A stretch of 64,000 nt of DNA. Source: a virus. Lineage: Duplodnaviria; Heunggongvirae; Uroviricota; Caudoviricetes. Of this stretch, positions 8,743-50,578 are shown piece after piece. A program made the translations under genes and the position numbers. The notes under the pieces were generated by a model that searched no databases, had not been told where the DNA came from, and saw nothing but the letters and a program-made list of their open reading frames with translations. Each line of letters begins with the position of its first letter. The first letter of the stretch is position 1. The stretch spans positions 24,416 to 88,415 of the IMG/VR virus record IMGVR_UViG_3300021255_002784; one strand, written 5' to 3'.

Positions 8743-10317
8743 ATGAGAAAAGTGATAAAACGAGACGGATCCAAGGAGATCTTCAATTTTAGTAAGATAT
8801 ACAATGCTGTTGATGCTGCATTCGTACACTGTAATCGAACGATGCCTGAAGGTTTCAAATCTGCATTGGAGAGTACATTCAAAAACGAGAACCCCCGCGA
8901 CATAAATGGTAAACTCCTTCCACTGACGGTAGAGTCTATTCAGGATCGAGTCCAGAACCTGCTGTTCAAACACGGATATCAAGATGTATATAACGAGTAC
9001 CTTATATATCGATATGAGCACAAGGTGACACGTGAATACGTCAAGTCCCAACGGGATTTCATCGACAGGTACATCCAATCAGATAACAATGCCAACGCCA
9101 CTATAGACGACAATTCTAATGTGGCCAGTAAAAACATAGGTACACTCAATAGTGAGATCCATAAACCATGGAACATCAAAATCTCTCGGGGCATGGTTAT
9201 GGACATGCTCAAGATACTGTATCCGGACTTCGATCACAAACAGTACATCAGGGATCTGGCCCATCATATAATATATAAACATGACGAGTCTACTTATGCC
9301 GGGCCTATCGCACCGTACTGTTGTAGTATTTCTATGTATCCATTTATTACTGGTGGTATCAAACATATCGGTGGTCTGTCAGCCTGCCCGCACAGTCTGA
9401 TGTCTTTCTGTGGTATATATATCAATCTGATATTCGCCATCAGTGGTCAGTTTGCAGGCGCTGTAGCTACGTCAGAGTTCTTCGTATACTTCGATTATTT
9501 CGCCCGAAAAGAATGGGGTGACGATTATTATAAGCGCACAGACGAACTCGTTGGAAAACGCACTTTACACAAGCTTATTCACCAGTATTTTCAACAGGTG
9601 GTGTACAGTATCAACCAGCCCGCAGCAGCACGAGGTATGCAGAGTGCTTTTGTGAACTTCTCATACTTCGACAAACCATTCTTTGATGGTATGTTTGGCA
9701 ACTTCATGTTCCCGGACGGAACCAAAGCATGCTGGGAGAGTGTTAACTGGCTACAACGCGATTTTATGCAGTGGTTCAATGAAGAGCGCTTACGCTGTAT
9801 GTTAACGTTCCCTGTAGAGTCTTTTGCTCTGGTATACAAGGACGGACACTTCGTGGATCAGGACAGCGCGGATTTCGTAGCGGCTGAGTATGCTCGAGGT
9901 CATTCCTTCTTTACGTACATATCTGATTCGGTGGATTCACTTTCTTCGTGTTGTTTTAATGGGGATGAAATTATCAAAATTAAAGATAAAAACGGTAATA
10001 ATTTTTCCACATCAATATCGGATTTTGTCAATTCAATAAGTTCTTCAGTTTGCCCATCAGGGAAAAAGATTGGGGAAAAAACATATTTTATAGATTCTTT
10101 TAATAAAAATGGTGGTTGCAAAGAGGTTCAGATTACGGGGGTTTTGAAAAAACAATACTGTGGCAAAATGTATAAGATTTGCGTGGATGAAAATAAATAC
10201 ATCACAGTAACACCAGACCATATTTTAATGGTGAGAAATCGAAAGGGGAATATTCTTTCCCTCCCTGCAGAAGATGTTGTAAGAAACCCAGATGACTATG
10301 AACTTGTTGTGGATTGA
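8743..10317 (+). CDS. nrdD: anaerobic ribonucleoside-triphosphate reductase NrdD, N-terminal fragment fused to the N-terminal half of an intein (IntN)
   Basis: ATP-cone at the N-terminus (MRKVIKRDGSKEIFNFSKIYNAVDAA); conserved NrdD SSCC(RL) motif split after the first Cys; from 9952 intein block A (CFNGDEIIKI) and block B (ITVTPDHILMV); stop after ~121 intein residues. Confidence 0.8.
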   Translation: MRKVIKRDGSKEIFNFSKIYNAVDAAFVHCNRTMPEGFKSALESTFKNENPRDINGKLLPLTVESIQDRVQNLLFKHGYQDVYNEYLIYRYEHKVTREYVKSQRDFIDRYIQSDNNANATIDDNSNVASKNIGTLNSEIHKPWNIKISRGMVMDMLKILYPDFDHKQYIRDLAHHIIYKHDESTYAGPIAPYCCSISMYPFITGGIKHIGGLSACPHSLMSFCGIYINLIFAISGQFAGAVATSEFFVYFDYFARKEWGDDYYKRTDELVGKRTLHKLIHQYFQQVVYSINQPAAARGMQSAFVNFSYFDKPFFDGMFGNFMFPDGTKACWESVNWLQRDFMQWFNEERLRCMLTFPVESFALVYKDGHFVDQDSADFVAAEYARGHSFFTYISDSVDSLSSCCFNGDEIIKIKDKNGNNFSTSISDFVNSISSSVCPSGKKIGEKTYFIDSFNKNGGCKEVQITGVLKKQYCGKMYKICVDENKYITVTPDHILMVRNRKGNILSLPAEDVVRNPDDYELVVD

Positions 10318-10358: not shown

Positions 10359-11477
10359 ATGGAAGATTATTTAATTTGCCCAATATGTAGTTGTAAAAGT
10401 AAAAACCTAATATCACATATTAGAAGAACTCATGACAAAAATATAAAAAACAGAGTTGATTTTGAAAATAGATTTCCTGAATTAAAAGGTACAAAACTTC
10501 AGATATCTAGATACGATTTGTCAAAAGAATTTAAGTGTGAGTTTTGTGGAAAAATCTACCACAGATTGAATGACTTAAGAAACCATATTCGGCAAAATCA
10601 TCCGGATAAATACTTCAAAACAATACCTAACTTAAAAGCACCTCAACAAAAATGTCCTATATGCTCAAAACTGGTAGGAAACTTAAGACAACATGTTAAA
10701 GAATCTCATGATTTAGAATGGGAAGTATTTTGTAAAGAATATAATTGGGACGTTAATAAAGCAAAAATTATAACTGACGAGTACAGGAAAAAATTGTCGG
10801 AAAATAAAAAATTATATTATAGGAGTCCAGAAGGGTTGAAAAGAAGAAAGAAACAATCAGATTTCTGGAAAGAAAATAATCCAGTCTACAATCCAAAATG
10901 TTTAGAAAAATCAATGTTTACAAGAAGTTCAAATGGGCACCTACCAGTACGAAACCAGGATTGTAGAGGAATAAAAGTTAATTGTTTTGGAAAAACATTC
11001 AGAAGTTTTACCGAATTTAAGTTTTATATCTTGTGCAAAAAATACGGATTAAACATCAGATATGAACCAAACGATTATTGCGTCAAATGGTATTCAGAAG
11101 ATAAAAAATTTTATACTACATATCTCCCAGATTTCATCATAAATGAAAACGAACTGATCGAATTAAAACAAGACAAATATCAGGTTAAAAAATGTGTAAA
11201 TTTTGAGAAATACATAAAAGTTTCAGAAGCATATAAAAAATTAAATGTTAATTTTAAGATAGTTGATCCTATTGAATTTTTCAAAGAAAGGGGCGTAATT
11301 TTAGATTTTGAAGATAAACAGTACATTAAAGATAATATATTAAATTTGTATGATAAAAACGCTATACGAATAATAACCCCGTATAAAGAATCTTCCGAAT
11401 TAAGAGATCTTTTCGAAACGGACAATTTATCGAACATTTCTTGCATAACATTCACCAAAAATGCTAAAAAATCATAA
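10359..11477 (+). CDS. free-standing homing endonuclease (C2H2 zinc fingers + PD-(D/E)xK/Vsr-like domain) located between the IntN and IntC genes
   Basis: three CxxC...HxxxH fingers (CPICSCKSKNLISHIRRTHD, CEFCGKIYHRLNDLRNHIRQNHPD, CPICSKLVGNLRQHVKESHD); C-terminal YLPDFII...ELIELK nuclease-like motif; own ATG after a frame-0 stop, different frame from flanking ORFs. Confidence 0.6.
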   Translation: MEDYLICPICSCKSKNLISHIRRTHDKNIKNRVDFENRFPELKGTKLQISRYDLSKEFKCEFCGKIYHRLNDLRNHIRQNHPDKYFKTIPNLKAPQQKCPICSKLVGNLRQHVKESHDLEWEVFCKEYNWDVNKAKIITDEYRKKLSENKKLYYRSPEGLKRRKKQSDFWKENNPVYNPKCLEKSMFTRSSNGHLPVRNQDCRGIKVNCFGKTFRSFTEFKFYILCKKYGLNIRYEPNDYCVKWYSEDKKFYTTYLPDFIINENELIELKQDKYQVKKCVNFEKYIKVSEAYKKLNVNFKIVDPIEFFKERGVILDFEDKQYIKDNILNLYDKNAIRIITPYKESSELRDLFETDNLSNISCITFTKNAKKS

Positions 11478-12582
11478 TATGAAATATTGCAAAATTTATA
11501 AAATAGAGACTATAACTGTTGACCAACCAGTATATGATATAGAATTGGCAGAAAATCATTATTTTTCCGCCAATGGTATAATCACACATAATTGCAGGCT
11601 CAAGAACAAGGTGCAAACCAAAGAGTTCAATTTCACCAATGGTAATATGGGCGTCATGACTGGTAGCAAGTCAGTCATCACTCTGAATCTGAACCGTATT
11701 ATCCAAGACAGTTATAATGAGTGGTGTAAGATCTTCTCTAATGGTACACCTGACGAACTGAAAGAGACGTTCAAAGAAGACTACAGTGTTCTTTGCAACA
11801 GTCTCCAACAAGTACTCGAAAGAGTATATAAGTATCACACCGCCTACAACGAGAGCCTCTGGCGTATGTACGATGCACATATGTTACCTGTATATAGAGC
11901 AGGATTCATATCACTGGACAAGCAGTACCTGACTATCGGCATCAATGGTCTGAACGAAGCCGCTGAGTTCCTTGGTATATCCATCAATGACAACCCCGAG
12001 TATTCGAAGTTCTGTCAGACGGTGTTTAGCTGTATCAAAGATATGAACACCTCACACAACGGTAAGTTTAACGGACATAAACTGACATTCAATACCGAGT
12101 GTGTTCCTGCAGAATCGTTAGCTGCCAAGAACTACAACTGGGACAAGGCTGATGGATACTGGGTTCCTGAAGGACGTAATCTGTATGCATCTTATATATA
12201 TCTACCGTCTGACGAGAAAGTCAATCTGTTCGAGAAGATACGTATGCACGGTAAGAATTACATCGGCGACTACCTGGACGGAGGATCAGCAGCTCACCTC
12301 AACCTGGACAGTCACCTGAGTAAAGCCCAGTACGAGAAAGTGCTTCAGTACGCAGCTGAACAAGGATGTCAGTACCTGACTTTCAATATACCGAACAGTG
12401 AGTGTGCCGACTGTGGATATATTACGAAAGTACCTATTGCTCAATGCCCGAAGTGTGGATCAGAACATATCTGGTACTACGACAGACCGATTGGATATAT
12501 AACCCGAATAGATCGCTGGGCAACAGCAAGACAGATCGAACAAAAAACAAGAGTATACGAACACATTCCATCGGATTGTTAA
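11461..12582 (+). CDS. nrdD: IntC (C-terminal intein part) fused to the NrdD C-terminal fragment
   Basis: intein blocks F/G (VYDIELAENHYFSANGIITHN) then +1 Cys resuming CRLKNK (completes SSC|CRL); C-terminal Zn-ribbon CADCGY...CPKCGS and glycyl-radical region RPIGYITRI. Confidence 0.8.
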   Translation: MLKNHNMKYCKIYKIETITVDQPVYDIELAENHYFSANGIITHNCRLKNKVQTKEFNFTNGNMGVMTGSKSVITLNLNRIIQDSYNEWCKIFSNGTPDELKETFKEDYSVLCNSLQQVLERVYKYHTAYNESLWRMYDAHMLPVYRAGFISLDKQYLTIGINGLNEAAEFLGISINDNPEYSKFCQTVFSCIKDMNTSHNGKFNGHKLTFNTECVPAESLAAKNYNWDKADGYWVPEGRNLYASYIYLPSDEKVNLFEKIRMHGKNYIGDYLDGGSAAHLNLDSHLSKAQYEKVLQYAAEQGCQYLTFNIPNSECADCGYITKVPIAQCPKCGSEHIWYYDRPIGYITRIDRWATARQIEQKTRVYEHIPSDC

Positions 12583-28659: not shown

Positions 28660-28780
28660 TCGTAGAATCCACTATTTTTTTTACGTCGGAATCACTAACG
28701 AAGTCTTGAAAAAACCCGAGATTTCATTAAAGATTTCGGCGTTTTTTCTTATATATATTCATATTAGAGAAATAACATAT

Positions 28781-29393: not shown

Positions 29394-30701
29394 ATGACAA
29401 TAGTACAACTTTTCAACACAGTAAAGAATACAGCAGGGACAAACGACAAGCTCCTTCTTCTTAAAAACAATATGTCCGATCTGGTAAAAGACATCTTCGA
29501 ACAGACCTACGGAGAACACAAGTTCTATGTGACCAAAGTGGATGTTGAGGTGGTCGGTGATCTCACGATCGAAGATGGATGGGCTGACTACAAACAAGTC
29601 CTTTGGCAGTGTGAGTGCCATCACATCACTGGCAACGAAGCTCGTCTCGCACTACAAACAGAACTCGAGCGTTTCCAGGAAGAAGATCAGAAGATCTTAC
29701 TCAACGTGCTCGCACATAATCTGAAGATCGGTGTATCACGGGACAACTTCCAAAAGATCGCGCCGATCTTTGAGGTATATGAGGTATCTCTCGCAGAACA
29801 ACTTGTGGACACGAAAGGTGTTGATCCGGTAGATGGAACCTATTTCGCATCTCGTAAGTTAGATGGTGTACGCTGTGTGGCATTCGTACATAACTATATG
29901 GTCGGCGACAAATTCGTTCAAGAAATCAAATTCAAGAGCCGCCAGAATAAAGAGTTCACTACATTGAACAATCTTATTGAACCAGTAAAAGAGTTTACGG
30001 CAAAGCTATTGGGTAAGTGGGTTCTGGACGGTGAGGTTTGCATCTTGGACGAGAATGGTGATGAGCATTTTGATTGGGTAATGAAAGAAATCACTCGTAA
30101 GGATCATACTATTGAGAATCCTTGCTATAACATTTTTGACATCCTGAGATTGGAAGAGTTTAATATGTTTGACGAGTCACCACGATTCGAACTTCGATAT
30201 CGGACGCTCTTGGAACTGTTCTATCATTGCGCAGATAAAGAACACATTCATATACTCAAGCAAGAACGACTGACGAGCCAAGAGGACTTCGATCGCTGGT
30301 CCGGATACGTAGCAGAAGGGCATTGGGAGGGATTTATGTTGCGTAAGGACGTTCCGTATCAACGTGGACGCAGCAAGGATCTCTTGAAGGTCAAGAAGTT
30401 CAAGGATGCAGAATACGTAGTGGTAGGTACCTTGAACTCCAAAGTCACCTACAACGAAGACGGACACAAGGAGTTTGATGCTTGCCGGGCTCTGTTGATT
30501 GAGCATAAGGGTAACCAGGTGCAAGTAGGTAGTGGATTATCCAAAGAACAACGACTCCGCTGGTACGATTATCCAGAAGAGATTATAGGTAAGACCATCA
30601 CGGTACAGTACTTCGAAGAGACAAAAGACTCTAAAACGGGTGAGTACTCACTCCGTTTCCCGGTACTCAAATTCATTTATGAAAACGGACGTGACGTCTA
30701 A
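29394..30701 (+). CDS. ATP-dependent DNA ligase
   Basis: nucleotidyltransferase motifs I KLDGVR, III LDGEVCI, IV EGFMLRK, V LLKVKKF in order. Confidence 0.7.
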   Translation: MTIVQLFNTVKNTAGTNDKLLLLKNNMSDLVKDIFEQTYGEHKFYVTKVDVEVVGDLTIEDGWADYKQVLWQCECHHITGNEARLALQTELERFQEEDQKILLNVLAHNLKIGVSRDNFQKIAPIFEVYEVSLAEQLVDTKGVDPVDGTYFASRKLDGVRCVAFVHNYMVGDKFVQEIKFKSRQNKEFTTLNNLIEPVKEFTAKLLGKWVLDGEVCILDENGDEHFDWVMKEITRKDHTIENPCYNIFDILRLEEFNMFDESPRFELRYRTLLELFYHCADKEHIHILKQERLTSQEDFDRWSGYVAEGHWEGFMLRKDVPYQRGRSKDLLKVKKFKDAEYVVVGTLNSKVTYNEDGHKEFDACRALLIEHKGNQVQVGSGLSKEQRLRWYDYPEEIIGKTITVQYFEETKDSKTGEYSLRFPVLKFIYENGRDV

Positions 30702-30750: not shown

Positions 30751-31239
30751 ATGAGACATCCATACACAACTGTGCACGATTTGAGAGATATCTTAATGAT
30801 TTACAAGGATTGCGATGATTGGCAGATGAAGTTTTGGAACTTCACTGATCAGAACTACCTGGAGTTAAGATACTTGAAGGTCGAATTAGGACTAGAACCA
30901 TCATCGGTGGTATTCGAAGCCTCCACTAAACAGACCGCATCTAACCCAGTACACTTATTCAAGTTGATGCTGACACACATAGACAGGCAAGCCGGTGCTA
31001 TAATGGATCCTCTTTCGGTTGAGAATCTCCGCATCAAGGTCATTAACGTGTCGAACGGTCAACCAATGCATATCTATTTTGTGGGTTCGAGCAAGCCGGA
31101 CAAGAGTGTGAATTGGTGTATAGACTACGATGACATAAACTTCCACAAACTCAAACGCTGGTTCCAATGGAAGAAACTGTATATCAAGTGCAGATTTGAG
31201 TCCACATTCAAACACCTCAAGAAATTCTTTAACAATTAA
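30751..31239 (+). CDS. hypothetical protein (162 aa)
   Basis: ORF. Confidence 0.45.
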   Translation: MRHPYTTVHDLRDILMIYKDCDDWQMKFWNFTDQNYLELRYLKVELGLEPSSVVFEASTKQTASNPVHLFKLMLTHIDRQAGAIMDPLSVENLRIKVINVSNGQPMHIYFVGSSKPDKSVNWCIDYDDINFHKLKRWFQWKKLYIKCRFESTFKHLKKFFNN

Positions 31240-31252
31240 ATTCAAATAACGA

Positions 31253-32755
31253 ATGGTAAACATTTCATTTATTATCGGAGGTGCGGTTTTGACACTCCTC
31301 GTTCTGATTCTGTGTCTTTCGTATGTGAAGGCAAGTCCTAACATGGCATTGGTAATCTCGGGTTGGCCATTGAAGAATCCTAAGTTCCTTAAAGGCACAG
31401 GTGGCCTTCGCATCCCAGGATTACAAAAAGTAGATGGTCTGTATCTCGGACAATTCTCTGTGGATATCAAAGCGTCATCTATCCCTACGAAGGACTTCAT
31501 CAACGTGAATGTCGACGCAGTGGCGAAGATTTGTGTCGACCAAGAACTTATTGCGACAGCAGCAACTAACTTCCTGAACTTCAGTCCTCAAGACATTGCA
31601 CGAAACATTCAAGAGTCATTGGAAGGTAACATGCGTGAGATTGTTGGTACACAGGAGCTCAAACAGTTGAACCTGGACCGAGATGGATTCTCCGACCAGA
31701 TCCGTAACAAGGCCGAGAAGGACATGCAACAGTTAGGTCTCCACATTCTTACCTGTAACATCCAGAACATCACTGATGAAAAAGGGCTTATTCAGGACCT
31801 AGGTGCAGACAACACTTACATGATTAAGAAGAACGCCTCCATCAACAAAGCTAATGCGGAACGCGATGTCGCTATTGCCGAAGCAAAAGCAAAGAAAGAG
31901 GCCAACGATGCCCGAGTAGCATCCGAGACGGAGATCGCTCAACGTAATACCGAGTTGGCAGTCAAACAGGCGGAACTGAAGCGTCAAGCGGATACCCAAA
32001 AGGCAATGGCCGATGCAGCTTACAAGATCCAGGAGCAAGAACAGGCCAAAGAGATTAACGTCAAGACAGTTGAGGCACAAGCAGCTAAGACGATCCGTAT
32101 CAACGAGCGCCAAAAGGAAATCAACCGTCTCGAGGTAGAGGCAAAGGTCGAGAAGGCCAAACAAGAGCAAGCCTTGAAAGAGCAAGAGATTGCTATTCAG
32201 GAGAAGACATTGGCTGCACAAGTCAACAAACAAGCCGATGCAGATAAGTACCAGAAAGAGGTCAATGCCGCCGCCGAATTGGAGCAACGTAAACGTAAGG
32301 CAGAAGCCGAGCGTTATGAGGCAGAACAGAAAGCACTGGCTGTCAAAGCCAAGGCGGAAGCGGATCTCTATGCGCGCCAGCAAGAAGCCGCAGGTATCAA
32401 GGCTGTAGGTGAGGCAGAAGCAGCTGCCATCTTGGCTAAGGGAGAGGCAGAAGCCAAAGCAATGGACAAGAAAGCAGAGGCGTACAAGAAGTACGGACAC
32501 GCCGCACTCGCACAAATGGTTGTGGACAAGCTCCCTGAGGTAGCCGCATCAGTCGCAGAACCACTCAAGTCTATCAAGGACGTTCACGTCTATGGCACGA
32601 ACGGTAGTGAGGTATCAGGTATCTCAGGCAACGTTCCGGTGCTGGTGAAACAGTCGATGGATGTGATGGAACAGGCTACCGGTGTAAACCTCGGAAAGAT
32701 TATGGAAGAGAACTCCAAAGTGATCTCTGCAGGAGCCAAAGTGGAAGGTAAGTAA
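31253..32755 (+). CDS. SPFH/band-7 (flotillin-like) membrane protein with long Ala/Lys/Glu-rich coiled-coil
   Basis: N-terminal TM helix, SPFH-like core (ALVISGWPL...GLRIPGLQKVDGLYLGQFSVDIK...), then ~250 aa of AEAKAKKEA-type heptad repeats (flotillin/YqiK architecture). Confidence 0.6.
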   Translation: MVNISFIIGGAVLTLLVLILCLSYVKASPNMALVISGWPLKNPKFLKGTGGLRIPGLQKVDGLYLGQFSVDIKASSIPTKDFINVNVDAVAKICVDQELIATAATNFLNFSPQDIARNIQESLEGNMREIVGTQELKQLNLDRDGFSDQIRNKAEKDMQQLGLHILTCNIQNITDEKGLIQDLGADNTYMIKKNASINKANAERDVAIAEAKAKKEANDARVASETEIAQRNTELAVKQAELKRQADTQKAMADAAYKIQEQEQAKEINVKTVEAQAAKTIRINERQKEINRLEVEAKVEKAKQEQALKEQEIAIQEKTLAAQVNKQADADKYQKEVNAAAELEQRKRKAEAERYEAEQKALAVKAKAEADLYARQQEAAGIKAVGEAEAAAILAKGEAEAKAMDKKAEAYKKYGHAALAQMVVDKLPEVAASVAEPLKSIKDVHVYGTNGSEVSGISGNVPVLVKQSMDVMEQATGVNLGKIMEENSKVISAGAKVEGK

Positions 32756-32820
32756 TATACCGATTCACGAAAAAGAAAGGACTTAGGTAAATAACCTGGG
32801 TCCTTTTTATATATTTATCT

Positions 32821-33123: not shown

Positions 33124-33372
33124 ATGAGTAGATATAGAATAGTCATGAAGAAAACGGTTTGGCGAGAGCCCAATCCTAACGAACCCTATTCATTTATACA
33201 ACACTGTTATATTGGTTTCATACCACAAAAACGCTTTCTCGGTTTTCTTTGGCGTAGTATGATTGAAAATATTTCCGATATCAGTGGTTATGAGACTGAA
33301 GAAGAAGCTCGATCTGTAATTATGAAAGATATGATTGAAAAAAACGAACAAACAGTAATATGTGAATATTAA
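33124..33372 (+). CDS. hypothetical protein (82 aa), paralog of the next gene
   Basis: shares (K)YRIV..T.W.EP...QKRFLGFLW...E...A with 33381..33629. Confidence 0.45.
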   Translation: MSRYRIVMKKTVWREPNPNEPYSFIQHCYIGFIPQKRFLGFLWRSMIENISDISGYETEEEARSVIMKDMIEKNEQTVICEY

Positions 33373-33380
33373 AACAGCTT

Positions 33381-33629
33381 ATGAAAAAGTACAGAATAGT
33401 AAAACACACAACTGAATGGATTGAGCCGGCACAATACGGAGCGGGTATTAGATACAATCGCACATCATATGAAGTACAGAAACGATTTCTGGGATTCCTT
33501 TGGTGGTACAATCCTTTTGACATTGATGGAATGGCCACCGGACAATACGATACTCTACTCGAGGCGCAAGCCGTTGTAAATAGGATCAATGCAAAAACAA
33601 AAGATGGAGTAATCGGCGAATATGAATAA
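33381..33629 (+). CDS. hypothetical protein (82 aa), tandem paralog of 33124..33372
   Basis: see the paralog entry above. Confidence 0.45.
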   Translation: MKKYRIVKHTTEWIEPAQYGAGIRYNRTSYEVQKRFLGFLWWYNPFDIDGMATGQYDTLLEAQAVVNRINAKTKDGVIGEYE

Positions 33630-33910: not shown

Positions 33911-34168
33911 TTGCGAGATTATTCAAGCGCCTTTCTATATTATATACACATGACAAGTATAACGATATTAAGAAAGCCTGGATTTATATTGAATCCTGAT
34001 GATAGAACAGTTAACTCTATCTTTAGATTACTGAATAAGAATAACGGTCATTGTCCATGCAACAATCCTGATAAGGGTACAGATAATGATATATGTCCAT
34101 GTCGTAGTTATAGAGAAGGCAATCATTGTTGCTGTACACTGTATGTACCTTGTCCACAACAGAAATGA
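33911..34168 (+). CDS. hypothetical Cys-rich protein (85 aa)
   Basis: CPCNNP...CPCRSY...HCCCTLYVPC cluster. Confidence 0.35.
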   Translation: MRDYSSAFLYYIHMTSITILRKPGFILNPDDRTVNSIFRLLNKNNGHCPCNNPDKGTDNDICPCRSYREGNHCCCTLYVPCPQQK

Positions 34169-41327: not shown

Positions 41328-41684
41328 ATGAAGCACATTCTTTGGATAGATGACCTGAGGGATCCACATTCTCCGAAGTGGAAAGAGTATCTCGATTATG
41401 CCGCAGAAGAGTTCTTAGATGTTCCTCTGAATGAGTGTACAGTAAGCTGGGCACGGAGCAAGAACGAGTTTATCCAGCATCTCATTCTTGAGACCTGGCC
41501 GGATCTAGTTTGTTTCGATCACGATCTCGGACTTGGTCCTACAGGGTACGACTGTGCCAAGTACTTAGTAGATATGTGCATGGAGACAGGCAATCCTCTT
41601 CCAGAGTTTGTATCCCAGTCGTCTAATCCAGTCGGGCGAGAAGACATCATTCGTTTACTTGAAAACTATAGGAAACACTTATAA
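41328..41684 (+). CDS. hypothetical protein (118 aa)
   Basis: ORF after a promoter box. Confidence 0.45.
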   Translation: MKHILWIDDLRDPHSPKWKEYLDYAAEEFLDVPLNECTVSWARSKNEFIQHLILETWPDLVCFDHDLGLGPTGYDCAKYLVDMCMETGNPLPEFVSQSSNPVGREDIIRLLENYRKHL

Positions 41685-41694
41685 TAACATTTCA

Positions 41695-42609
41695 ATGAAA
41701 AGACAAATCATTCTATTACAAGGACCGCCTCGAAGTGGTAAGACGACTTGGGCGAAAACACACTGGGACACAGCACCTCTAGATACCTACGTATATATGA
41801 TCAGCACCCACGACCTGAGCTGGAAGTCCACAGATAGGGGTTATATTATAAATACTCTGGACACTGTTCTAGAGACAGAGCGTAAAGCTATCATGGAGCG
41901 CCTCAGTTATTATGATAGAGACTGGGACATCATTGTCGACGCTTACAACGCCAATCCTAAGCGGGTTCAGGAGTTCGAAAAACTCGCGAACAAGATGGGT
42001 GCAGAATTGGTAATCAAGCAGTTCTATATTCCTTACTCTGAAAGTTACAAACGCAACAAAGAGGTTGGAGTCCATTCCAAAGAATACATTCCTCGGGACG
42101 TTTTGGCCGGGTTCTATGATACGTACTACCACGAATGGTACCGGGACGAGCTCACAGACAAGAGAGTCATCAGACAACCGGAACCTACTCTTCCTCCTTG
42201 CATCATCTGCGACCTGGATGCTACACTAGCCTTACATCAGGGACGGGAACCATTCGAATGGGACCGACTCCTGACTGACAAGATCGACCCTCGCTTGCGA
42301 GATCTGTTGAACTTCCATATGACGTCCGGCACCAAGGTGTTCTTTCTAACAGGTCGCACCCAACGCGCACGACTGGATACCTTGATGTGGTTGCAAAATC
42401 CGAAACAGGGTCTGTGTGATGGGTGGGAACTGATCACTCGCAGTCAAGGAGATTTCTCTTCGGGTGATGTATACAAACTCAAGATGTACGAGCAACTCAT
42501 ACAAGGCAAGTACAATGTACTGTGCGTCTTCGAAGACAGTAACAAGTGTGTGAAAATGTGGAGAGAACTCGGTCTCTTGACTTGCCAGGTAGCAAATTCA
42601 GAATACTAA
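41695..42609 (+). CDS. polynucleotide 5'-kinase/3'-phosphatase (T4 Pnk/PseT-like)
   Basis: N-terminal P-loop GPPRSGKTT kinase domain; C-terminal HAD phosphatase with IICDLDATLA (DxDxT). Confidence 0.65.
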   Translation: MKRQIILLQGPPRSGKTTWAKTHWDTAPLDTYVYMISTHDLSWKSTDRGYIINTLDTVLETERKAIMERLSYYDRDWDIIVDAYNANPKRVQEFEKLANKMGAELVIKQFYIPYSESYKRNKEVGVHSKEYIPRDVLAGFYDTYYHEWYRDELTDKRVIRQPEPTLPPCIICDLDATLALHQGREPFEWDRLLTDKIDPRLRDLLNFHMTSGTKVFFLTGRTQRARLDTLMWLQNPKQGLCDGWELITRSQGDFSSGDVYKLKMYEQLIQGKYNVLCVFEDSNKCVKMWRELGLLTCQVANSEY

Positions 42610-45594: not shown

Positions 45595-46143
45595 TTATTC
45601 TTCCTCAGGGATGGTAACGTCATCATCATCCACATTACTCATATCCTCGATGAATGCTTTAGAACCACGATGTATGCTGGCTTGTTGACCATTTTCTGGT
45701 TGTGCTTCTTGTTGAGGTTCAAAATTTATCTCCATTTGATAAGCTTTCATCATAGCATTGAGACGCTGAATAGTCTCCTCTATCTTGGATGTGATATTAA
45801 GGATGGTACGCTGGGTCTCGGTCAGGGCGCGGTACAGACTAGCGTTACCAGGGTTACATCCGATGTTCTTTAGAAGGATGTCATGCGCCTGCTCATCAGC
45901 CTTACGCATCTTGAGATTGATACGTATAGACTCCAAGTCTGCATCTACCCGTTTCTTAAAAGCTGGATGTTCCTTCATGAAATCAGGATCGTAGTAGAAA
46001 CGTGATATGTCTGTAATAAGCTGATGGGCCTCGTCCTTAGACTCCTCACCAATCGCATCGATATCAATGTTTACTATTTGATCCGGATCGATTAAATCTG
46101 TAACCTGCTTTTCCGCCTGTTCAAATATATCATCCATGTCCAT
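45595..46143 (-). CDS. hypothetical acidic protein (182 aa)
   Basis: minus-strand ORF. Confidence 0.45.
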   Translation of the reverse strand: MDMDDIFEQAEKQVTDLIDPDQIVNIDIDAIGEESKDEAHQLITDISRFYYDPDFMKEHPAFKKRVDADLESIRINLKMRKADEQAHDILLKNIGCNPGNASLYRALTETQRTILNITSKIEETIQRLNAMMKAYQMEINFEPQQEAQPENGQQASIHRGSKAFIEDMSNVDDDDVTIPEEE

Positions 46144-46146
46144 GAT

Positions 46147-46812
46147 TTACTTCTTTTTTGTGGTAGTTTTGGTCTTCACATCCGATTCTTCTTTTGGAAT
46201 TATCTTCTCAATCAGATAATTGCTAAGTTGTTTCTTGATGTTGTTGATAAAAGAGTCGAACTCCTGAGTGATGTTATCCAAATAATAATCAGCAATCTCA
46301 TCGATAGGTATATCCATAGAACGATGTAATAAGGCTATCTCGTTCTGGGGAAAGTTCGGCCATTTCATGACTATACTCCAGTTTGGGAATTTAGCTTTAC
46401 TCAATGCCTTCTCAATGAACGCACGATTGGATGTTTGTGGTTTGGACACGGGTAAGTTCAATTGACGAGACTCCTTTGGAGCTACCGGTTGGGCTCCACT
46501 GATCATAGCAAGATCCTCTGGGTCGATGAGTTCTTCTTCAGGCGCATCCCCGATCTCTGCTGCGATTTCTGGTGGGAGTTCTTCTGTTTTGGAAGATTGC
46601 GAGATAGGTTTCTTGGGTGGGAGATCCTTGCCTGTCCATTGAACGTATTCTGTTAATTGATTAAGATTGAGTCGACGACCGTCATAGGTCTGAACAATCA
46701 TGTTATTGTCTTCAAAATAGTTACTGCGAACTTTGAACGAATCACCAGTCTTAGCATTGTACCATACGGTATCATCGAGTACTGGTCCGTCTATTCCAAA
46801 TTGTGGCATCAT
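46147..46812 (-). CDS. hypothetical protein (221 aa)
   Basis: minus-strand ORF. Confidence 0.45.
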   Translation of the reverse strand: MMPQFGIDGPVLDDTVWYNAKTGDSFKVRSNYFEDNNMIVQTYDGRRLNLNQLTEYVQWTGKDLPPKKPISQSSKTEELPPEIAAEIGDAPEEELIDPEDLAMISGAQPVAPKESRQLNLPVSKPQTSNRAFIEKALSKAKFPNWSIVMKWPNFPQNEIALLHRSMDIPIDEIADYYLDNITQEFDSFINNIKKQLSNYLIEKIIPKEESDVKTKTTTKKK

Positions 46813-46832
46813 AATCTTACTGATATTTTTGT

Positions 46833-47423
46833 TTAACTGCTAAATGCTTGACTGAATGCAGGTAACAAGTCCTCATGTTGAACTAATGCAAATACGATGG
46901 CCGCGATACGAACGGGATCATCATTCATAAAATAAAGTACTCGGTTTTTGTCGTATGAGTACATGTTTCTAATAAAAATGTTGAGATCCTGACGCTCGAG
47001 ATCCTCTCGTTCATTGAAATTATACGAGCAACGCTCATCTCGATAACGATTGTAGCGGTTGGCTTTGGTGTTGTCCAACCAGATGAAACACACATCTTCA
47101 GGCATGAGTTTTGGAGAGATGGCCACCAGTTGATCTGGTGATAATACGAACACGTCATTGTTTTCCACATCGTAAGTGGATAGCCCTTCGTAGTACTTCT
47201 CTGTACCGTGTTTTAGTTCGCGTAAGAACACGTAGGCATTGTTTTCGAATACTTCATTGATATCGGTTGTGCTGACGAGTTCGTAGTTGTAGCTGCCATA
47301 TATAGTATCTGATGGAGCCTCAATATTCGAGAACAACTTTCCACATGCGACGCCTTGGTGTTCAAGAATATCCACTACCTCTTGCTTGCCACTACCATGA
47401 AGTCCAACAATAAAATACTTCAT
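46833..47423 (-). CDS. P-loop NTPase, nucleotide-kinase-like
   Basis: N-terminal Walker A GLHGSGKQEV; 196 aa. Confidence 0.45.
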   Translation of the reverse strand: MKYFIVGLHGSGKQEVVDILEHQGVACGKLFSNIEAPSDTIYGSYNYELVSTTDINEVFENNAYVFLRELKHGTEKYYEGLSTYDVENNDVFVLSPDQLVAISPKLMPEDVCFIWLDNTKANRYNRYRDERCSYNFNEREDLERQDLNIFIRNMYSYDKNRVLYFMNDDPVRIAAIVFALVQHEDLLPAFSQAFSS

Positions 47424-47494
47424 TTACTTGATAGGTTTGATTTCCTAAAAAATAAATGAAGTATTTTGACAATTTTCGGTATTTTGCAATAAAA

Positions 47495-50400
47495 TTACGT
47501 TGTGCTAACTAATATCTTACCATCATTGGTTCTGAAGAAGTTGCGCAATGCTGACTCGATCTGTGAAGATATATCAATCTGTGCAGCTGCCTGAACATCC
47601 TTATTTTGACCAGCTCCTTGTAGGGTTGGATTAGCACCTCCTGGAGGAACAGGACCGCCAGTTGTTGGGGCATTTGCAAGTTTCTCAAAGGCTTCACCAG
47701 TACGTTGGGTCACTTGTTCTTGCCGTTCGGTATATTCTTGGATGTGTTGATCAGCATCGTCGATAGTCTTTCGGAGACCCTCTAGGATTGGTGCCAACTT
47801 CTCATTGATGACGTCTGCAAGCTTGTCGAAGTTGCCGTTGATCGCTTGTGCGAACGCAGCCGCATGACCAAACATCTTGGCGAGTGAATCCAACTTGTTG
47901 ATATTCAGACCGTTGATTCGGTTGATCAACTTATCGGTGTCCTTGACTACAGCACTATAGGATTGTGAATGTTCTACCACAAATGGTAGGAGACCTTCTT
48001 CACCATTCAATAGTTTATTGAACGATTCAGATATCTTCTTGCAGGTAATGTCTATCTTTTGTAGGTTAGCATCGTCAATACCTTGTAGCTCGTCCACAGC
48101 CTTCTTCATGAGTTTGGTGATGTTCATGATGGTTGTGAACAATGGAATAGTGGCTTGCAATGAATCTAGTCCTCCGTCCACATCACCAAGTTTGACTTTG
48201 GAATCGTTGAGAGTAGTGATGATAGAATCCAGCCCAACCAACAAACCGTTGGTCATGGTTGCAGCATTAGTTCCGATCTTTTCACCACCCATCTCATTGT
48301 AAGTCTCCCAACAAGTCTTCATGATGTTTGCTGCTGCTAGTACAACAGATAGTGCAGCTACGGATATACCGATTCGTACGAAGGCACACAACAGATCCAC
48401 GATGTCTGCCAGATTGCCGAGGCCTATGGTCTGAAGTAGTTTGGACAATCCCTTACGTGGCTTGCCGTTCGGTTCTTCAATAGGCTCTGATAAGATACCT
48501 ATGATATTACCCACGGCCTTCATAATCTCCCCAACTCGCGTCTCTACCATATTGAAGTCCAAACCATCTGTGGTCTCAACCATCCATTTCATCTCCTTCA
48601 CCAGTACGGCTAACATAGCCAATACAACGATCGATAGTGCTACAACCACTACTTTGGTGAGCAGTTTGAATATGGTTACAAAGTCCGAGCCAGAAACATA
48701 GGATATCAACTTGGAGAACTTATCATCCTCTTCACCCATTTCAGCGTTAGGCTTATAGTTTATAACTGTGTCTATAATACGATAAGCGCCTTCGATGATA
48801 GAGACTACCACGGTGGGTGCATTGTCTAGGATTGATTTGTTAGCCTCGTATATCTTAGTTAGCCCTATGATAACTCCTACTAATACGATCAAAGTGATTA
48901 CCACAAACACGGTCAAGAATAATATAGTGACCTTAACAATCAGATCGAATATGCCTAGTGCTTCTTGACCTAGTACTGTTCCGAGTATGGTTCTAATCCA
49001 ACTCCTATCAGTATCTTCTTTGGTGCGTTTGAAATCGGCGTTGAGAACTGTTTGGATTACTTGTTCAGCAGTGTTTATGATCTTATCAACTGATATTATA
49101 ACAGCATCTACATCCAAAAATTTTGCAATCCATACAATCATTATCAGCATGGTTGCAAGTGCCAACAATGCCAAAATGCCTATAGTGATCGCAGCCATTG
49201 CTATAACACCAATCAACATAAATGGTGCAACAAAAGATGCCAGTGTCATAAATCCAGCAATAGCTAACACTATCAATCCCATGAATCCTATAGTGATAAG
49301 AGTACTCAATAGATTATCTTGCAATACCTTGCCCGCTAATACAATCATCATTAGTGTAGTGGCTATAATCATGAGCACACCGCATACTACTATCATAGGC
49401 ACCACCACTTTTATAGCTTGGAATGCTGCTCTTCTCGCTAGTTTCGCCATCAACCTAATCATTTTAACCATGATCCCAAATGCTACTACTATAGATGCCA
49501 ATCCTAAGATGAATGGGATGAACAGCAACAATACCAACATACCGATTACTGATATGACCGCGACAGTTATGGCTATCTGTTTTATGGCTATTTTCAAAAG
49601 AGCGAACATCACCGTCATATTAAGGACAGACATCATCAGCTTGTCACGGCGTTTCTTATTGAAGTTTATGCTGATAGTTTTTGCTATTTCATTCAACCCG
49701 GCTATTAGTATTCTTGTTATTCTAGACAACCTTCTCATTCTTCTTCGAATCGATATGGCCGTTGGTACATCCAATTTCATGAACTGATTGACTGATTCAG
49801 TGAATGATCTCAGAGCAGAAATAACAGTTGATGTTGACGTAATAAATTGTTTTATAATTGTAAGTTGAATGTTTTTTTGAGCATAGTTATTGAGTCTGTT
49901 TATAAATTCTGCAAGTATCTTTAAGTCCAGATATAGCACAATAGTTTTGTAGAGCATGACAACACTATTCGGTGTGTCTATAGCTACAAAATCATGCATT
50001 TTGGTTGCCAGTGTCATAACCATGTTGACCATATTATTGATGCTGGTCAAAATCAATTTTCTTGCACCAGAATTTAGAATTGCCGCCATTGTGCCAGCAG
50101 ACGATGTCAATCCTAGTATACCTATGGCAAGAATGTCAACATTCAACTTCAACATGGTCATTTTCCACATCAATGAGATTTGACTAGGAACTTCCATATT
50201 GATGATGTTTTCTATCATCTTGAATATCCCTATTAGTAATTGAAGTATGCCTGCTTTAGAAAAATCCGTTTTTGTGATATCAGCAGAAGGATCATATCCA
50301 GTTAGAATAGATTGAAGATTTTTTGCAGAGTCTCCATCATTCAACTCTTTTAAGTTCGCGAGTGATTCTTGAATATATGTAAACAGGTCAGTCATAATAT

Positions 50401-50578
50401 GCATCAGATTATGTACGTTTTTGCTAGCCTGATCTGCTTTTTTGTTTATAGAAGCATAGTCGCAGTTGGCATTGATCGCATCGATAATGCCAGCCAAATC
50501 CTCAGTAACAGATGTAATCTGATTGATGATATCACTTAAATTCACTACTCCACCATGCACTTCTTTACTTTTAGCCAT
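47495..50578 (-). CDS. large multi-TM, Ala/Ile-rich protein (1027 aa), tape-measure-like
   Basis: more than 10 hydrophobic helices interspersed with coiled-coil-like segments, Gly/Pro-rich C-terminus; this composition is typical of phage tape-measure or ejection proteins. Confidence 0.35.
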   Translation of the reverse strand: MAKSKEVHGGVVNLSDIINQITSVTEDLAGIIDAINANCDYASINKKADQASKNVHNLMHIMTDLFTYIQESLANLKELNDGDSAKNLQSILTGYDPSADITKTDFSKAGILQLLIGIFKMIENIINMEVPSQISLMWKMTMLKLNVDILAIGILGLTSSAGTMAAILNSGARKLILTSINNMVNMVMTLATKMHDFVAIDTPNSVVMLYKTIVLYLDLKILAEFINRLNNYAQKNIQLTIIKQFITSTSTVISALRSFTESVNQFMKLDVPTAISIRRRMRRLSRITRILIAGLNEIAKTISINFNKKRRDKLMMSVLNMTVMFALLKIAIKQIAITVAVISVIGMLVLLLFIPFILGLASIVVAFGIMVKMIRLMAKLARRAAFQAIKVVVPMIVVCGVLMIIATTLMMIVLAGKVLQDNLLSTLITIGFMGLIVLAIAGFMTLASFVAPFMLIGVIAMAAITIGILALLALATMLIMIVWIAKFLDVDAVIISVDKIINTAEQVIQTVLNADFKRTKEDTDRSWIRTILGTVLGQEALGIFDLIVKVTILFLTVFVVITLIVLVGVIIGLTKIYEANKSILDNAPTVVVSIIEGAYRIIDTVINYKPNAEMGEEDDKFSKLISYVSGSDFVTIFKLLTKVVVVALSIVVLAMLAVLVKEMKWMVETTDGLDFNMVETRVGEIMKAVGNIIGILSEPIEEPNGKPRKGLSKLLQTIGLGNLADIVDLLCAFVRIGISVAALSVVLAAANIMKTCWETYNEMGGEKIGTNAATMTNGLLVGLDSIITTLNDSKVKLGDVDGGLDSLQATIPLFTTIMNITKLMKKAVDELQGIDDANLQKIDITCKKISESFNKLLNGEEGLLPFVVEHSQSYSAVVKDTDKLINRINGLNINKLDSLAKMFGHAAAFAQAINGNFDKLADVINEKLAPILEGLRKTIDDADQHIQEYTERQEQVTQRTGEAFEKLANAPTTGGPVPPGGANPTLQGAGQNKDVQAAAQIDISSQIESALRNFFRTNDGKILVSTT

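Follow-up and report, generated by a model that had tools for sequence, protein, structure and literature searches.

The ligase-orf162-flotillin locus

The window analyzed here, a stretch of 64,000 nucleotides, is phage DNA. It encodes a portal, an endolysin, homing endonucleases, NrdD, PNK, SbcD, and 29 tRNAs, and the portals closest to its own are those of jumbo or huge phages, including PAU and Lak. These genes bear out the phage origin proposed in an initial annotation that a model had made from the sequence alone. A megablast search with a 6-kb region returned zero matches among 50,697 phage records, and this phage is thus one without a close deposited relative. The source is a large, tRNA-rich phage whose hosts are most likely gut or rumen Bacteroidales. 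The locus holds the following features.

29394..30701, + strand: ATP-dependent DNA ligase (Pfam DNA_ligase_A_M and OB_2; phrog_114, E 3e-68)
30751..31239, + strand: orf162, ending 13 nt before the flotillin start
31253..32755, + strand: flotillin-family protein gene, ATG start, 500 aa plus stop
31799..32515, − strand: 238-aa antisense ORF, an artefact, the in-register reverse complement of sense codons
32774..32808, + strand: intrinsic-terminator-like hairpin plus T-run, with a 15-pair stem, closing the transcription unit

The ORF at 31253..32755 encodes a genuine, complete flotillin-family protein in a large phage genome, and it lies at the position where a flotillin-like protein had initially been annotated. 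The DNA ligase is the first gene of an apparent ligase-orf162-flotillin unit. It is syntenic in the sister contig L002 (94%), and a terminator-like site is found upstream of it at 28716-28739. The middle gene, orf162, is probably co-transcribed with flotillin; it has no match in Pfam, PHROGs, PADLOC, or NCBIfam. It is syntenic in L002 and L003, with 71% identity and a dN/dS of 0.12, and was not found beside flotillin in other phage lineages. The hairpin that follows flotillin has a minimum free energy of −20.2 kcal/mol (z −4.6; 0 of 200 shuffles were as stable) and is nearly unchanged in L002. In L162, the same place is occupied by another sequence, a GC-rich inverted repeat and then a T-run, as read from the alignment rather than from folding. 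A scan with the sigma-70 consensus, which differs from Bacteroidales promoters, found no promoters above chance (15 vs. 17.4 expected).

The antisense ORF had been noticed initially, correctly given as 238 aa and correctly dismissed as a gene, but its cause was attributed to codon periodicity. Periodicity as such is not responsible. The antisense frame stays open because the sense strand contains no TTA, CTA, or TCA codons between codons 183 and 433. Compared with L002, the antisense frame is 63% identical and the sense frame 97%, and the antisense product is a Leu/Phe/Cys-rich sequence of low complexity. This ORF is an artefact and should not be annotated.

Domain architecture and family membership

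The encoded protein divides into five parts, given here with their coding positions.

31262..31321, + strand: N-terminal hydrophobic helix, aa 4-23, putative membrane anchor (hydropathy and model)
31322..31786, + strand: SPFH/Band-7 core, aa 24-178 (PF01145, model, and match to 1win)
31787..32152, + strand: first long helix, aa 179-300, equivalent to CC1, the dome wall (model and phmmer)
32171..32569, + strand: second long helix, aa 307-439, equivalent to CC2 (model and overlap with PF15975)
32570..32752, + strand: C-terminal domain, aa 440-500 (aligned with the flotillin-1 C-terminal domain to aa 485)

A membrane anchor and an SPFH core had both been proposed from the sequence, with a profile search against PF01145 named as the deciding check, and both proposals hold up. 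The best 19-residue Kyte-Doolittle window begins at aa 4 with a mean of 2.84 (hydrophobic stretch aa 4-24), and the AF2 model places a helix at residues 4-23 (pLDDT about 80-88). The protein is therefore predicted to have the N-terminal membrane attachment of the flotillin family. Lys26 and further Lys/Arg residues lie C-terminal to this helix and none lie N-terminal to it, so that under the positive-inside rule the SPFH domain is predicted to be cytoplasmic. In the Pfam search, Band_7 (PF01145) matched aa 47-203 above its gathering score (E 7.6e-10; 39.6 bits vs. a cut-off of 23.6). The core is modeled as an alpha/beta fold (pLDDT 80-91) that matches 1win, the Band-7 domain of flotillin-2, with a TM-score of 0.75 on the target in Foldseek.

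In the alignment made by phmmer, the helix at 179-300 runs colinear with the coiled-coil of flotillin-1, and a match to Pfam Flot (PF15975) at aa 388-460 (31.9 bits vs. a cut-off of 27) indicates that the flotillin-specific C-terminal region is present. Together, the two modeled helices span about 260 aa, in agreement with the initial description of a coiled-coil of ~250 aa rich in Ala, Lys, and Glu; A, K, E, and Q make up 58-70% of residues 201-400. The AEAKAKKEA repeat that was part of the same description does not stand, however. Tandem Repeats Finder reports nothing at the DNA level, the tandem-repeat reading was rejected, and the "repeat" is biased composition and not a repeat array. The C-terminal domain is modeled with low AF2 confidence and is 100% identical to that of P0001, which belongs to the same lineage. 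The AF2 model is of a monomer (pTM 0.36). By analogy with its relatives, the protein may self-assemble into large ring- or dome-shaped oligomers.

Flotillins are builders of domes on the inner side of cell membranes. The full five-part layout of the phage protein (SPFH1/2, CC1, CC2, and C-terminal domain) is colinear with solved flotillins, and the protein is nearer to them than to other SPFH families. Its aa 27-485 align by phmmer with residues 5-421 of human flotillin-1 (E 5.5e-50), and the top Foldseek matches are chains of flotillin complexes (E about 2e-23). The NCBIfam FloT model (NF058507) aligns almost from end to end, at positions 5-475 of 477 (E 1.9e-72). Along with the Pfam Flot match, these results substantiate the flotillin/YqiK architecture suggested at the outset. 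The score against NF058507, 244.9 bits, does not reach the equivalog cut-off of 700 bits, and the protein is thus a family member and not a FloT orthologue by the NCBI criterion.

It is useful to set the phage protein against its best-known relatives. Eukaryotic flotillins are attached to membranes through a hydrophobic SPFH1 surface and acylation, whereas in the phage protein a transmembrane helix is predicted at the N-terminus. The phage protein is probably a homo-oligomer, whereas eukaryotic flotillin-1 combines with flotillin-2 in an obligate 1:1 hetero-oligomer; unlike them, it is also virus-encoded. Flotillin-1 and flotillin-2 (reggie), which form a 44-mer dome (PDB 9l3g, 9bq2), nevertheless share with it the order of SPFH, two coiled-coil helices, and C-terminal domain, at about 29-31% identity. 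The solved flotillin complex has a five-domain dome architecture (PMC13000311).

Among bacterial proteins, FloT (YuaG) of Bacillus subtilis and YqiK of E. coli belong to the same family and length class and have the same N-terminal anchor and cytoplasmic SPFH and coiled-coil regions. yuaF-floT and yqiJ-yqiK are operons of the SPFH-NfeD type, as is ybbJ-qmcA. By contrast, no NfeD-type gene adjoins the phage flotillin: neither orf162 nor the downstream orf99 is such a partner (no Pfam or NCBIfam match), and NfeD is absent among the precomputed Pfam matches around the phage and chromosomal relatives. Clostridia copies are instead preceded by a membrane protein with PAP2-like motifs, according to a by-eye reading.

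HflK/HflC, QmcA, stomatin, and prohibitin share the SPFH fold, after which a helix forms a cage in the shape of a ring. Of these, HflK/C and QmcA lie on the periplasmic side and act together with FtsH or NfeD partners. The phage protein might likewise form a cage around FtsH or a similar membrane protease, and so shield phage proteins or tune the choice between lysis and lysogeny. FtsH-enclosing HflK/C cages are among the structural matches (PDB 7wi3, 9cz2, 7vhq), and one relative of the gene is carried by a temperate phage. Yet the protein is of the flotillin type and not of the HflK/C type. All of these families match more weakly than flotillins do (Foldseek about 1e-10), have a shorter coiled-coil, and lack the Flot C-terminal region; in phmmer, flotillins are joined only by a weak QmcA match (3.6e-6), and HflK/C is absent at E 0.01 or better. 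HflK/C falls behind flotillins in Foldseek as well (E about 1e-10 or weaker), and the phage has a single gene rather than a K and C pair. The predicted cytoplasmic SPFH domain also contrasts with the periplasmic domes of HflK/C, no FtsH or NfeD partner gene adjoins the phage gene, and most carriers, being large tRNA-rich phages, look lytic. We regard control of a membrane protease as very unlikely.

PHROGs contains no family for the protein, and PADLOC-DB gave no match for flotillin or either neighbor at E 0.01 or better. Assignment to a viral family or a defense system was dropped, since neither resource gave a match.

Kinship with Bacteroidales chromosomes and recurrence among phages

Chromosomal flotillins of gut and rumen Bacteroidales are 65-73% identical to the phage protein over its full length, have the same domain layout, and are likewise stand-alone genes. 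The named relatives are proteins from metagenome-assembled genomes of Alloprevotella, Paludibacteraceae, and Bacteroidales. The chromosomal copies lie in housekeeping neighborhoods: P0035 (73%) beside POR, a glycosyltransferase, pth, and NrdD, and P0061 (65%) beside LptFG, SufE, and cytochrome bd. They form tight clusters with short branches, whereas the phage copies have long branches and are nested inside neither chromosomal cluster. A neighbor-joining tree with 300 bootstraps resolves the shallow groups and not the deep order; it contains a 16-member clade, with 64% support, in which all sampled contexts are phage. Against each of the chromosomal copies, synonymous sites have reached saturation.

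Homologues of the gene number roughly 7,700, and related genes recur widely in phages. The context is phage DNA in 11 of the 13 sequence clusters sampled at 65-97% identity (P0001, P0002, P0005, P0006, P0008, P0010, P0018, P0042, P0049, P0052, and P0057), and relatives are encoded in at least 153 IMG/VR stretches. Pattern scans of GTDB and of metagenomes need exact 8-mers of the query and so under-sample the range of 65-80% identity, for which contexts were obtained through exact-protein look-ups. The carriers are of unrelated kinds: P0005 is T4-like, P0006 lies in the early operon of a prophage, P0049 encodes PolB, and P0010 and P0052 are on contigs of 365 kb and 327 kb. PolB-encoding carrier contigs measure 67-75 kb, others 327-365 kb, and across the 82 loci fetched the contigs have a median length of 122 kb. 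Apart from flotillin, these phage loci have essentially no genes in common with the window. When 1,117 flanking proteins from 90 viral loci and 40 flotillin lineages were clustered for a conserved partner, no family occurred in more than seven lineages. In large phages, flotillin often adjoins a tRNA array. The initial annotation had missed both the 65-73% kinship to Bacteroidales chromosomal flotillins and the sharing among many unrelated large phages.

One flotillin lineage is therefore common to Bacteroidales chromosomes and many unrelated phages, which points to a host-type gene that phages took up, or passed among themselves, and then retained. The gene has the attributes of a host-derived accessory ("moron" or auxiliary) gene, namely chromosomal homologues, phage hallmark genes on both sides, and a dN/dS of 0.03-0.04. 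Three same-lineage copies give dN/dS values of 0.029-0.038 at dS 0.4-0.74, compared with 0.049 for the DNA ligase and 0.124 for orf162. Judged from these substitution rates, flotillin is under constraint as tight as that on the neighboring ligase within the window's lineage.

These data also bear on whether the gene is a mere passenger, either host DNA acquired recently and without a role in the phage or the product of a chimeric contig. Close chromosomal homologues do exist, and the gene has a GC content of 0.49 against a window mean of 0.41, 2.1 sd above it. However, GC3 is within the window's range, only 1.3 sd above the mean (z 1.3) and not an outlier, and flotillin genes, being rich in Ala codons, have a higher GC than their flanks in every context. 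Recent pickup, as read from the GC signal, was rejected on these grounds. Moreover, assemblies made independently from several samples show the gene in the same synteny (L002, L003, and L161-L164), phage genes extend on both sides for tens of kilobases, and the synonymous saturation against chromosomal copies is accompanied within the lineage by a dS of 0.4-0.7 with dN/dS about 0.03. A passenger or an artefact is thus highly improbable and already contradicted by the data.

Flotillin annotations are already known in a few GenBank phages; what is new is the Bacteroidales kinship and the recurrence across unrelated phages, along with the tight constraint, the lack of a conserved partner gene, and the frequent position beside tRNA arrays. 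A "flotillin family protein" is deposited for Vibrio phage KIT04 (T5-like, cultivable; KIT04_048) and for phage csAssE-Sib (151 kb, human gut); GIB1 and Xanthomonas X1 are phages in which SPFH proteins have been noted. These genes lie among early and replication genes, and the authors assign them no known function. The deposited phage flotillins are only 25-29% identical to the window's protein, over a third to half of its length, and thus represent separate acquisitions from other host groups.

Possible roles during infection

We favor, with moderate confidence, the view that this is a genuine flotillin, encoded by a host-type gene, that serves the phage as a scaffold for membrane microdomains. 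The role is most likely that of a self-assembling scaffold made in the replication phase. Flotillin would be transcribed last in the ligase-orf162-flotillin unit, which a strong terminator closes. From this position it would be made together with replication-phase genes, a timing that we infer from gene order alone. The N-terminal helix would insert in the membrane and leave the SPFH domain in the cytoplasm, and the conserved coiled-coils would drive self-assembly into large membrane-attached domes like the solved flotillin, HflK/C, and stomatin complexes. At 73% identity, co-assembly with the host flotillin may also occur. Such domes could delimit membrane patches, so that microdomains are kept or reorganized, with effects on fluidity, the stability of membrane protein complexes, and envelope integrity. 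The benefit would arise within the infected cell, over the lengthy infection cycle that large phages have. Since the protein has no PHROG family and no functional study of it was found in the literature, this physiological role is the best guess among several. Nor does any conserved partner or client gene link the protein to a particular process. The initial annotation had raised a scaffold for a membrane-associated replication or assembly site, and interference with host membrane defense, as possible functions; both are speculations on which the present results bear neither way.

Two other roles have to be weighed against this scaffold. First, flotillin may subvert its host counterpart: the phage subunit would co-assemble with a presumed host flotillin, 73% identical to it, and change or poison its domes. 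Doing so would free or trap clients such as membrane proteases, signaling or envelope-stress components, or membrane-acting abortive-infection effectors. Identity to the chromosomal copies peaks in the coiled-coils that make subunit contacts, with 76% in CC1 (P0035) and 77-81% in CC2, the best-conserved domain, vs. 69% in SPFH. Human flotillin-1 and -2 share only about 48% identity and are built together into a single 44-mer (PMC13000311). A pure poison, however, might be expected to show domain loss or relaxed constraint, whereas all five domains are kept here with a dN/dS of 0.03. We therefore hold subversion of host flotillin, and the freeing or trapping of its clients, to be unlikely.

Second, flotillin may act in superinfection exclusion or competition between phages by altering the inner membrane so that DNA entry of later phages is blocked. 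T4 Imm and Sp are small early membrane proteins that act in exclusion. The present protein is also predicted to be membrane-anchored and is apparently made with early or middle genes, its many unrelated carriers probably share hosts, and the operon that holds it in the temperate relative L004 starts at the HTH switch region. But that operon is on the lytic side, away from the repressor genes that would be expressed in a lysogen, and no PADLOC defense model matches. Known exclusion proteins do not resemble a cage-forming scaffold of 500 aa, and host cells already have a 73%-identical flotillin that evidently does not exclude these phages. Exclusion is accordingly an unlikely role.

The scaffold reading is relevant beyond this phage. 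Few conserved membrane proteins are as poorly understood as flotillins, and their phenotypes in bacteria are subtle. A full-length flotillin kept by a virus under very strong purifying selection, and by many unrelated large phages of the same host groups alike, amounts to a natural gain-of-function experiment, and its retention implies that infection benefits measurably from flotillin that is additional or altered. A cultivable pair of carrier phage and host could yield a sharper phenotype than host knockouts do and would show whether phages remodel bacterial membrane microdomains. For annotators, the analysis provides a name for a protein outside the PHROGs and a warning about its long antisense ORF.

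A broader extension of this reading, which we offer as a speculation with little probability, is that flotillin is a recurrent, horizontally exchanged "membrane-organizer" module with which large phages of Bacteroidales and Clostridia build flotillin-bounded membrane compartments, and that the selection on it, equal in strength to that on core replication enzymes, follows from that. If so, replication, assembly, or energy supply could have their platforms there, or the compartments could give shelter from abortive-infection effectors that target membranes. Eukaryotic viruses remodel rafts and membrane compartments, and the phage module would be the counterpart of this remodeling in viruses of bacteria. 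Flotillin often adjoins tRNA arrays and genes of tRNA repair (Thg1, a CCA-adding-like enzyme, and tmRNA), with which it might form a common takeover cassette.

Identity and architecture of the window protein

The initial annotation read the ORF at 31253–32755 as a flotillin-like protein with a membrane anchor, an SPFH core and a long Ala/Lys/Glu coiled-coil. That observation is confirmed, and the identification as a flotillin is supported.

31253–32755 (+), flotillin-family gene, an ORF with an ATG start encoding 500 aa
31799–32515 (−), 238-aa antisense ORF, exactly in register on the reverse complement of sense codons 183–421

A profile search of the kind proposed as a check matches Pfam Band_7/SPFH at aa 47–203 (E 7.6e-10; 39.6 bits where the cut-off is 23.6); Flot, a domain specific to flotillins, follows at aa 388–460 (31.9 bits, cut-off 27). 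In a sequence search of the PDB, human flotillin-1 was colinear with aa 27 to 485 (E 5.5e-50) and flotillin-2 came second (E 1.5e-44); the sole further SPFH family was QmcA, a weak match. The NCBIfam FloT model aligned over positions 5–475 of 477, yet the score of 245 bits falls below the 700 required of an equivalog. Thus, the protein is a member of the flotillin family and not a FloT orthologue.

The N terminus is strongly hydrophobic (top 19-residue Kyte-Doolittle window from aa 4, mean 2.84), in agreement with the proposed anchor. An AlphaFold2 model built from 62 homologues (mean pLDDT 70) predicts a helix at 4–23, an alpha/beta core at 24–175 (pLDDT 80–91), two very long helices at 179–300 and 307–439, and a C-terminal part of low confidence. 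Foldseek against the PDB ranked four flotillin-complex chains on top (E 2e-23 to 8e-20), with stomatin, prohibitin, HflK/C, erlin and QmcA behind them at 1e-10 or weaker. As modelled, the layout corresponds to the five domains (SPFH1/2, CC1, CC2 and CTD) of the solved flotillin dome, a 44-mer (PMC13000311). Residues 201–400 consist to 58–70% of Ala, Lys, Glu and Gln. The “AEAKAKKEA repeat” is a compositional bias, since Tandem Repeats Finder found no DNA repeat in the gene.

The warning against annotating the 238-aa antisense ORF proved sound. This frame is open because sense codons 183 to 433 contain no TTA, CTA or TCA, and its product is rich in Leu, Phe and Cys. Between the window and L002, a sister contig of the same phage lineage, the antisense frame is 63% identical and the sense protein 97%, the pattern that synonymous substitution in the sense frame would be expected to leave. 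It is an artefact. A second long antisense ORF (30955–31503, −, 182 aa), which covers the end of the upstream gene orf162 and the flotillin gene's first 250 nt, is probably spurious too; its conservation in L002 (71%) does not discriminate here.

Genome setting and constraint

The following features define the surroundings of the gene, to which an encoded thymidylate-synthase-like protein can be added.

435–1952 and 6923–8611, large HNH/homing endonuclease genes
4288–5067, endolysin
5134–6837, portal protein (phrog_213)
8743–10317 and 11461–12582, anaerobic ribonucleotide reductase NrdD, in two pieces
28716–28739, terminator-like site upstream of the ligase
29394–30701, ATP-dependent DNA ligase
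30751–31239 (+), orf162, with the ligase 49 nt before it and the flotillin start 13 nt past its end
32774–32808 (+), hairpin with a 15-pair stem and T-run, 19 nt past the flotillin stop codon
34681–44270 (+), 29 tRNA genes, an array beginning ~2 kb past the flotillin gene
41608–42609, polynucleotide kinase
62508–63467, SbcD

Megablast of a 6-kb region of the window found no deposited phage with DNA-level similarity. The portal protein best matches that of an uncultured 462-kb phage (42%), and it also matches Sphingomonas phage PAU (35%), uncultured phages of 636–735 kb and the Prevotella Lak megaphages (34%). Judged by these portal matches, the window probably belongs to a large or jumbo phage genome. 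Almost all genes lie on the + strand; the sole minus-strand block (45595–50578), where GC and AT skew switch sign (46001–50000), includes a 1027-aa ORF (47495–50578) without a PHROG match. The two NrdD ORFs are parted by a 372-aa ORF (10359–11477) with a weak zinc-finger match, and NrdD appears to have been interrupted by a mobile element, whether a homing endonuclease, an intron or an intein.

We infer that ligase, orf162 and flotillin form one unit expressed with replication genes. The hairpin past the flotillin stop codon has an MFE of −20.2 kcal/mol (z −4.6), and none of 200 shuffles was equally stable. It is almost unaltered in L002; L162, of the same lineage, has a different sequence at this place, by eye an inverted repeat rich in GC with a T-run after it. 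A sigma-70 scan did not exceed chance, and no promoter was identified. Two adjacent 82-aa ORFs (33124–33372 and 33381–33629) are paralogues with the shared motif KRFLGFLW and a GEYE or ICEY ending; no family match was obtained for either.

The lineage recurs in independent metagenome assemblies (L002, L003 and L161–L164; 95–97% identity), which are syntenic as ligase-orf159-flotillin. Within it the flotillin is under strong purifying selection, with a dN/dS of 0.029 between window and L002 (150 synonymous and 23 nonsynonymous differences, dS 0.68), 0.038 between window and L162, and 0.037 between L002 and L162; the adjacent DNA ligase and orf162 give 0.049 and 0.124. Synonymous sites are saturated against every copy beyond the lineage. 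The flotillin GC3 of 0.53 falls inside the range of window genes (0.44 ± 0.07, z 1.3). The gene is old in this lineage, strongly constrained and no fresh passenger; selection and synteny contradict its reading as a passenger or artefact.

Relatives in phages and Bacteroidales

More than 7,700 proteins match the window flotillin at E 1e-10 or better. We sampled 12 further sequence clusters at 65–79% identity by exact-protein look-up, and found 10 of the 12 in phage-type DNA and two on Bacteroidales chromosomes.

Genomic contexts of the 12 sampled clusters
P0002: short contig of small ORFs, phage-type
P0005: between T4-type baseplate and gp2 genes, phage-type
P0006: prophage inside a 239-kb bacterial contig, in the operon that runs out from the HTH switch region
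P0008: 97-kb contig, tmRNA and tRNA-Trp directly downstream, phage-type
P0010: 365-kb contig, Thg1 upstream and 14 tRNAs downstream, phage-type
P0018: 67-kb contig, Thg1 upstream, phage-type
P0042: 75-kb IMG/VR contig, phage-type
P0049: 67-kb contig, adjoining a B-family DNA polymerase, phage-type
P0052: 327-kb contig with NAD-salvage genes, Thg1 and reverse transcriptase, phage-type
P0057: 22-kb contig of small ORFs, phage-type
P0035 (73%): Bacteroidales chromosome, among POR, glycosyltransferase, peptidyl-tRNA hydrolase, MMPL and NrdD
P0061 (65%): Bacteroidales chromosome, among LptF/G, SufE, an FeS-assembly gene and cytochrome bd

Beyond at most one stray gene, the other phage loci have nothing in common with the 64-kb window, which makes the carriers unrelated phages. 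Chromosomal-type relatives carry the source names Alloprevotella, Paludibacteraceae and Bacteroidales; a pattern scan of GTDB species genomes reached only ~55% identity or less, mainly in Lachnospiraceae and other Clostridia. Conservation between phage and chromosomal copies extends to all five domains and is highest in the coiled-coils (window against P0035: SPFH 69%, CC1 76%, CC2 81%, CTD 59%).

A profile scan of IMG/VR found 153 stretches encoding a flotillin relative, and the gene recurs in many large phages: the 82 loci fetched have a median contig of 122 kb, with 51 of at least 100 kb and six of at least 200 kb, although these are not independent events because many loci are close relatives of one another. 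Among 50,697 deposited phage records nine match, two of them (Vibrio phage KIT04 and phage csAssE-Sib) annotated “flotillin family protein”. L036, from an “uncultured Prevotellaceae bacterium” MAG (CACYPF010000005.1), encodes a 53% identical flotillin flanked by small ORFs and not by housekeeping genes; the end of this contig may therefore represent a prophage or a phage fragment binned with the MAG.

In neighbor-joining trees (300 bootstraps), the ingroup of 64% identity or more had 100% support. The window grouped with P0001, P0002, P0003 and P0008, the last from an unrelated 97-kb phage (87%); the T4-like phage copy grouped with the prophage copy (100%), and a 16-member clade had phage contexts throughout those sampled (64%). 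Chromosomal cluster C1 received 100%, and the union of both chromosomal clusters to the exclusion of phage copies 8%. On these supports, flotillin genes either moved between unrelated phages or were captured repeatedly from unsampled hosts.

Proposed role and gene neighbors

By analogy with other family members and with solved flotillin, HflK/C and stomatin cages, the phage protein would anchor in the membrane through its N-terminal helix and oligomerize via its coiled-coils into membrane-attached domes, which would fence off membrane patches. Lys and Arg occur after this helix and not before it, which by the positive-inside rule suggests a cytoplasmic SPFH domain. The most likely benefit would be that microdomains are kept or reorganized, and envelope integrity maintained, during a long infection. 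After this membrane-microdomain role we rank co-assembly with, and subversion of, the host's own flotillin; superinfection exclusion comes third, and HflK/C-like control of a membrane protease last.

The flotillin family is known, and phage copies have been annotated before. The papers on phage GIB1 (PMC13239085) and Xanthomonas phage X1 (PMC13384950) do no more than mention an SPFH protein and call its role unclear. Our full-text search of open-access papers and bioRxiv found no study of phage flotillin function and no mention of flotillin in the jumbo- or huge-phage papers it retrieved. New here are the strong retention of the phage gene, its close tie to Bacteroidales chromosomal flotillins, and its spread over unrelated large phages, often adjoining tRNA arrays.

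Bacterial SPFH proteins usually have an NfeD gene as operon partner. No NfeD was found beside the phage copies or their chromosomal relatives, and both neighbors of the window gene lack Pfam, PHROG, NCBIfam and PADLOC matches. When 1,117 proteins flanking flotillin at 90 viral loci were clustered, no family turned up in more than seven of the 40 flotillin lineages (defined at 85% identity). By motifs and precomputed Pfam, the recurrent neighbors look like a CCA-adding-type nucleotidyltransferase (the most recurrent, 7/40), Thg1, a PRPP-synthetase-like protein, dUTPase, peptide deformylase and NrdD. Three phage loci have a Thg1-family gene (tRNA-His guanylyltransferase-like) directly upstream of flotillin, and a fourth has one within 5 kb (L007 9147–9977, L242 7179–7979, L085 7116–7916, L076 16213–17049). 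These are other host-like accessory genes rather than a dedicated partner, and the flotillin is a stand-alone module.

At least three tRNA genes occur within 8 kb of flotillin in 22 of 82 viral loci, whereas none of 58 bacterial genome loci has them; as many of the viral loci are closely related, these counts too are not independent events. In other large phages (L007, L013, L080 and many IMG/VR loci), flotillin also sits within a few kilobases of tRNA arrays. Directly past the flotillin stop in L080, a 97-kb phage-like contig, ARAGORN reports a tmRNA (11549–11905; tag peptide GNNTRIVPLVSARVYRAVA) and, after it, tRNA-Trp; the tmRNA would then be phage-encoded.

The sole neighbor common to the window and another flotillin-carrying phage lineage is a Cys-rich 85-aa protein (33911–34168; ...CPCNNPDKGTDNDICPCRSYREGNHCCCTLYVPC...). 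It matches a portion of the 193-aa gene directly after flotillin in the 327-kb phage contig L076 (11586–12167) at 34% identity (E 5e-10). In three Lachnospiraceae and Clostridia loci (L016, L025 and L029), flotillin is preceded not by NfeD but by a membrane protein (...PSGH...SRLYVGVHYPTDV...) that looks PAP2-type by eye from its motifs, and this PAP2-like protein and flotillin may be a conserved pairing in Clostridia.
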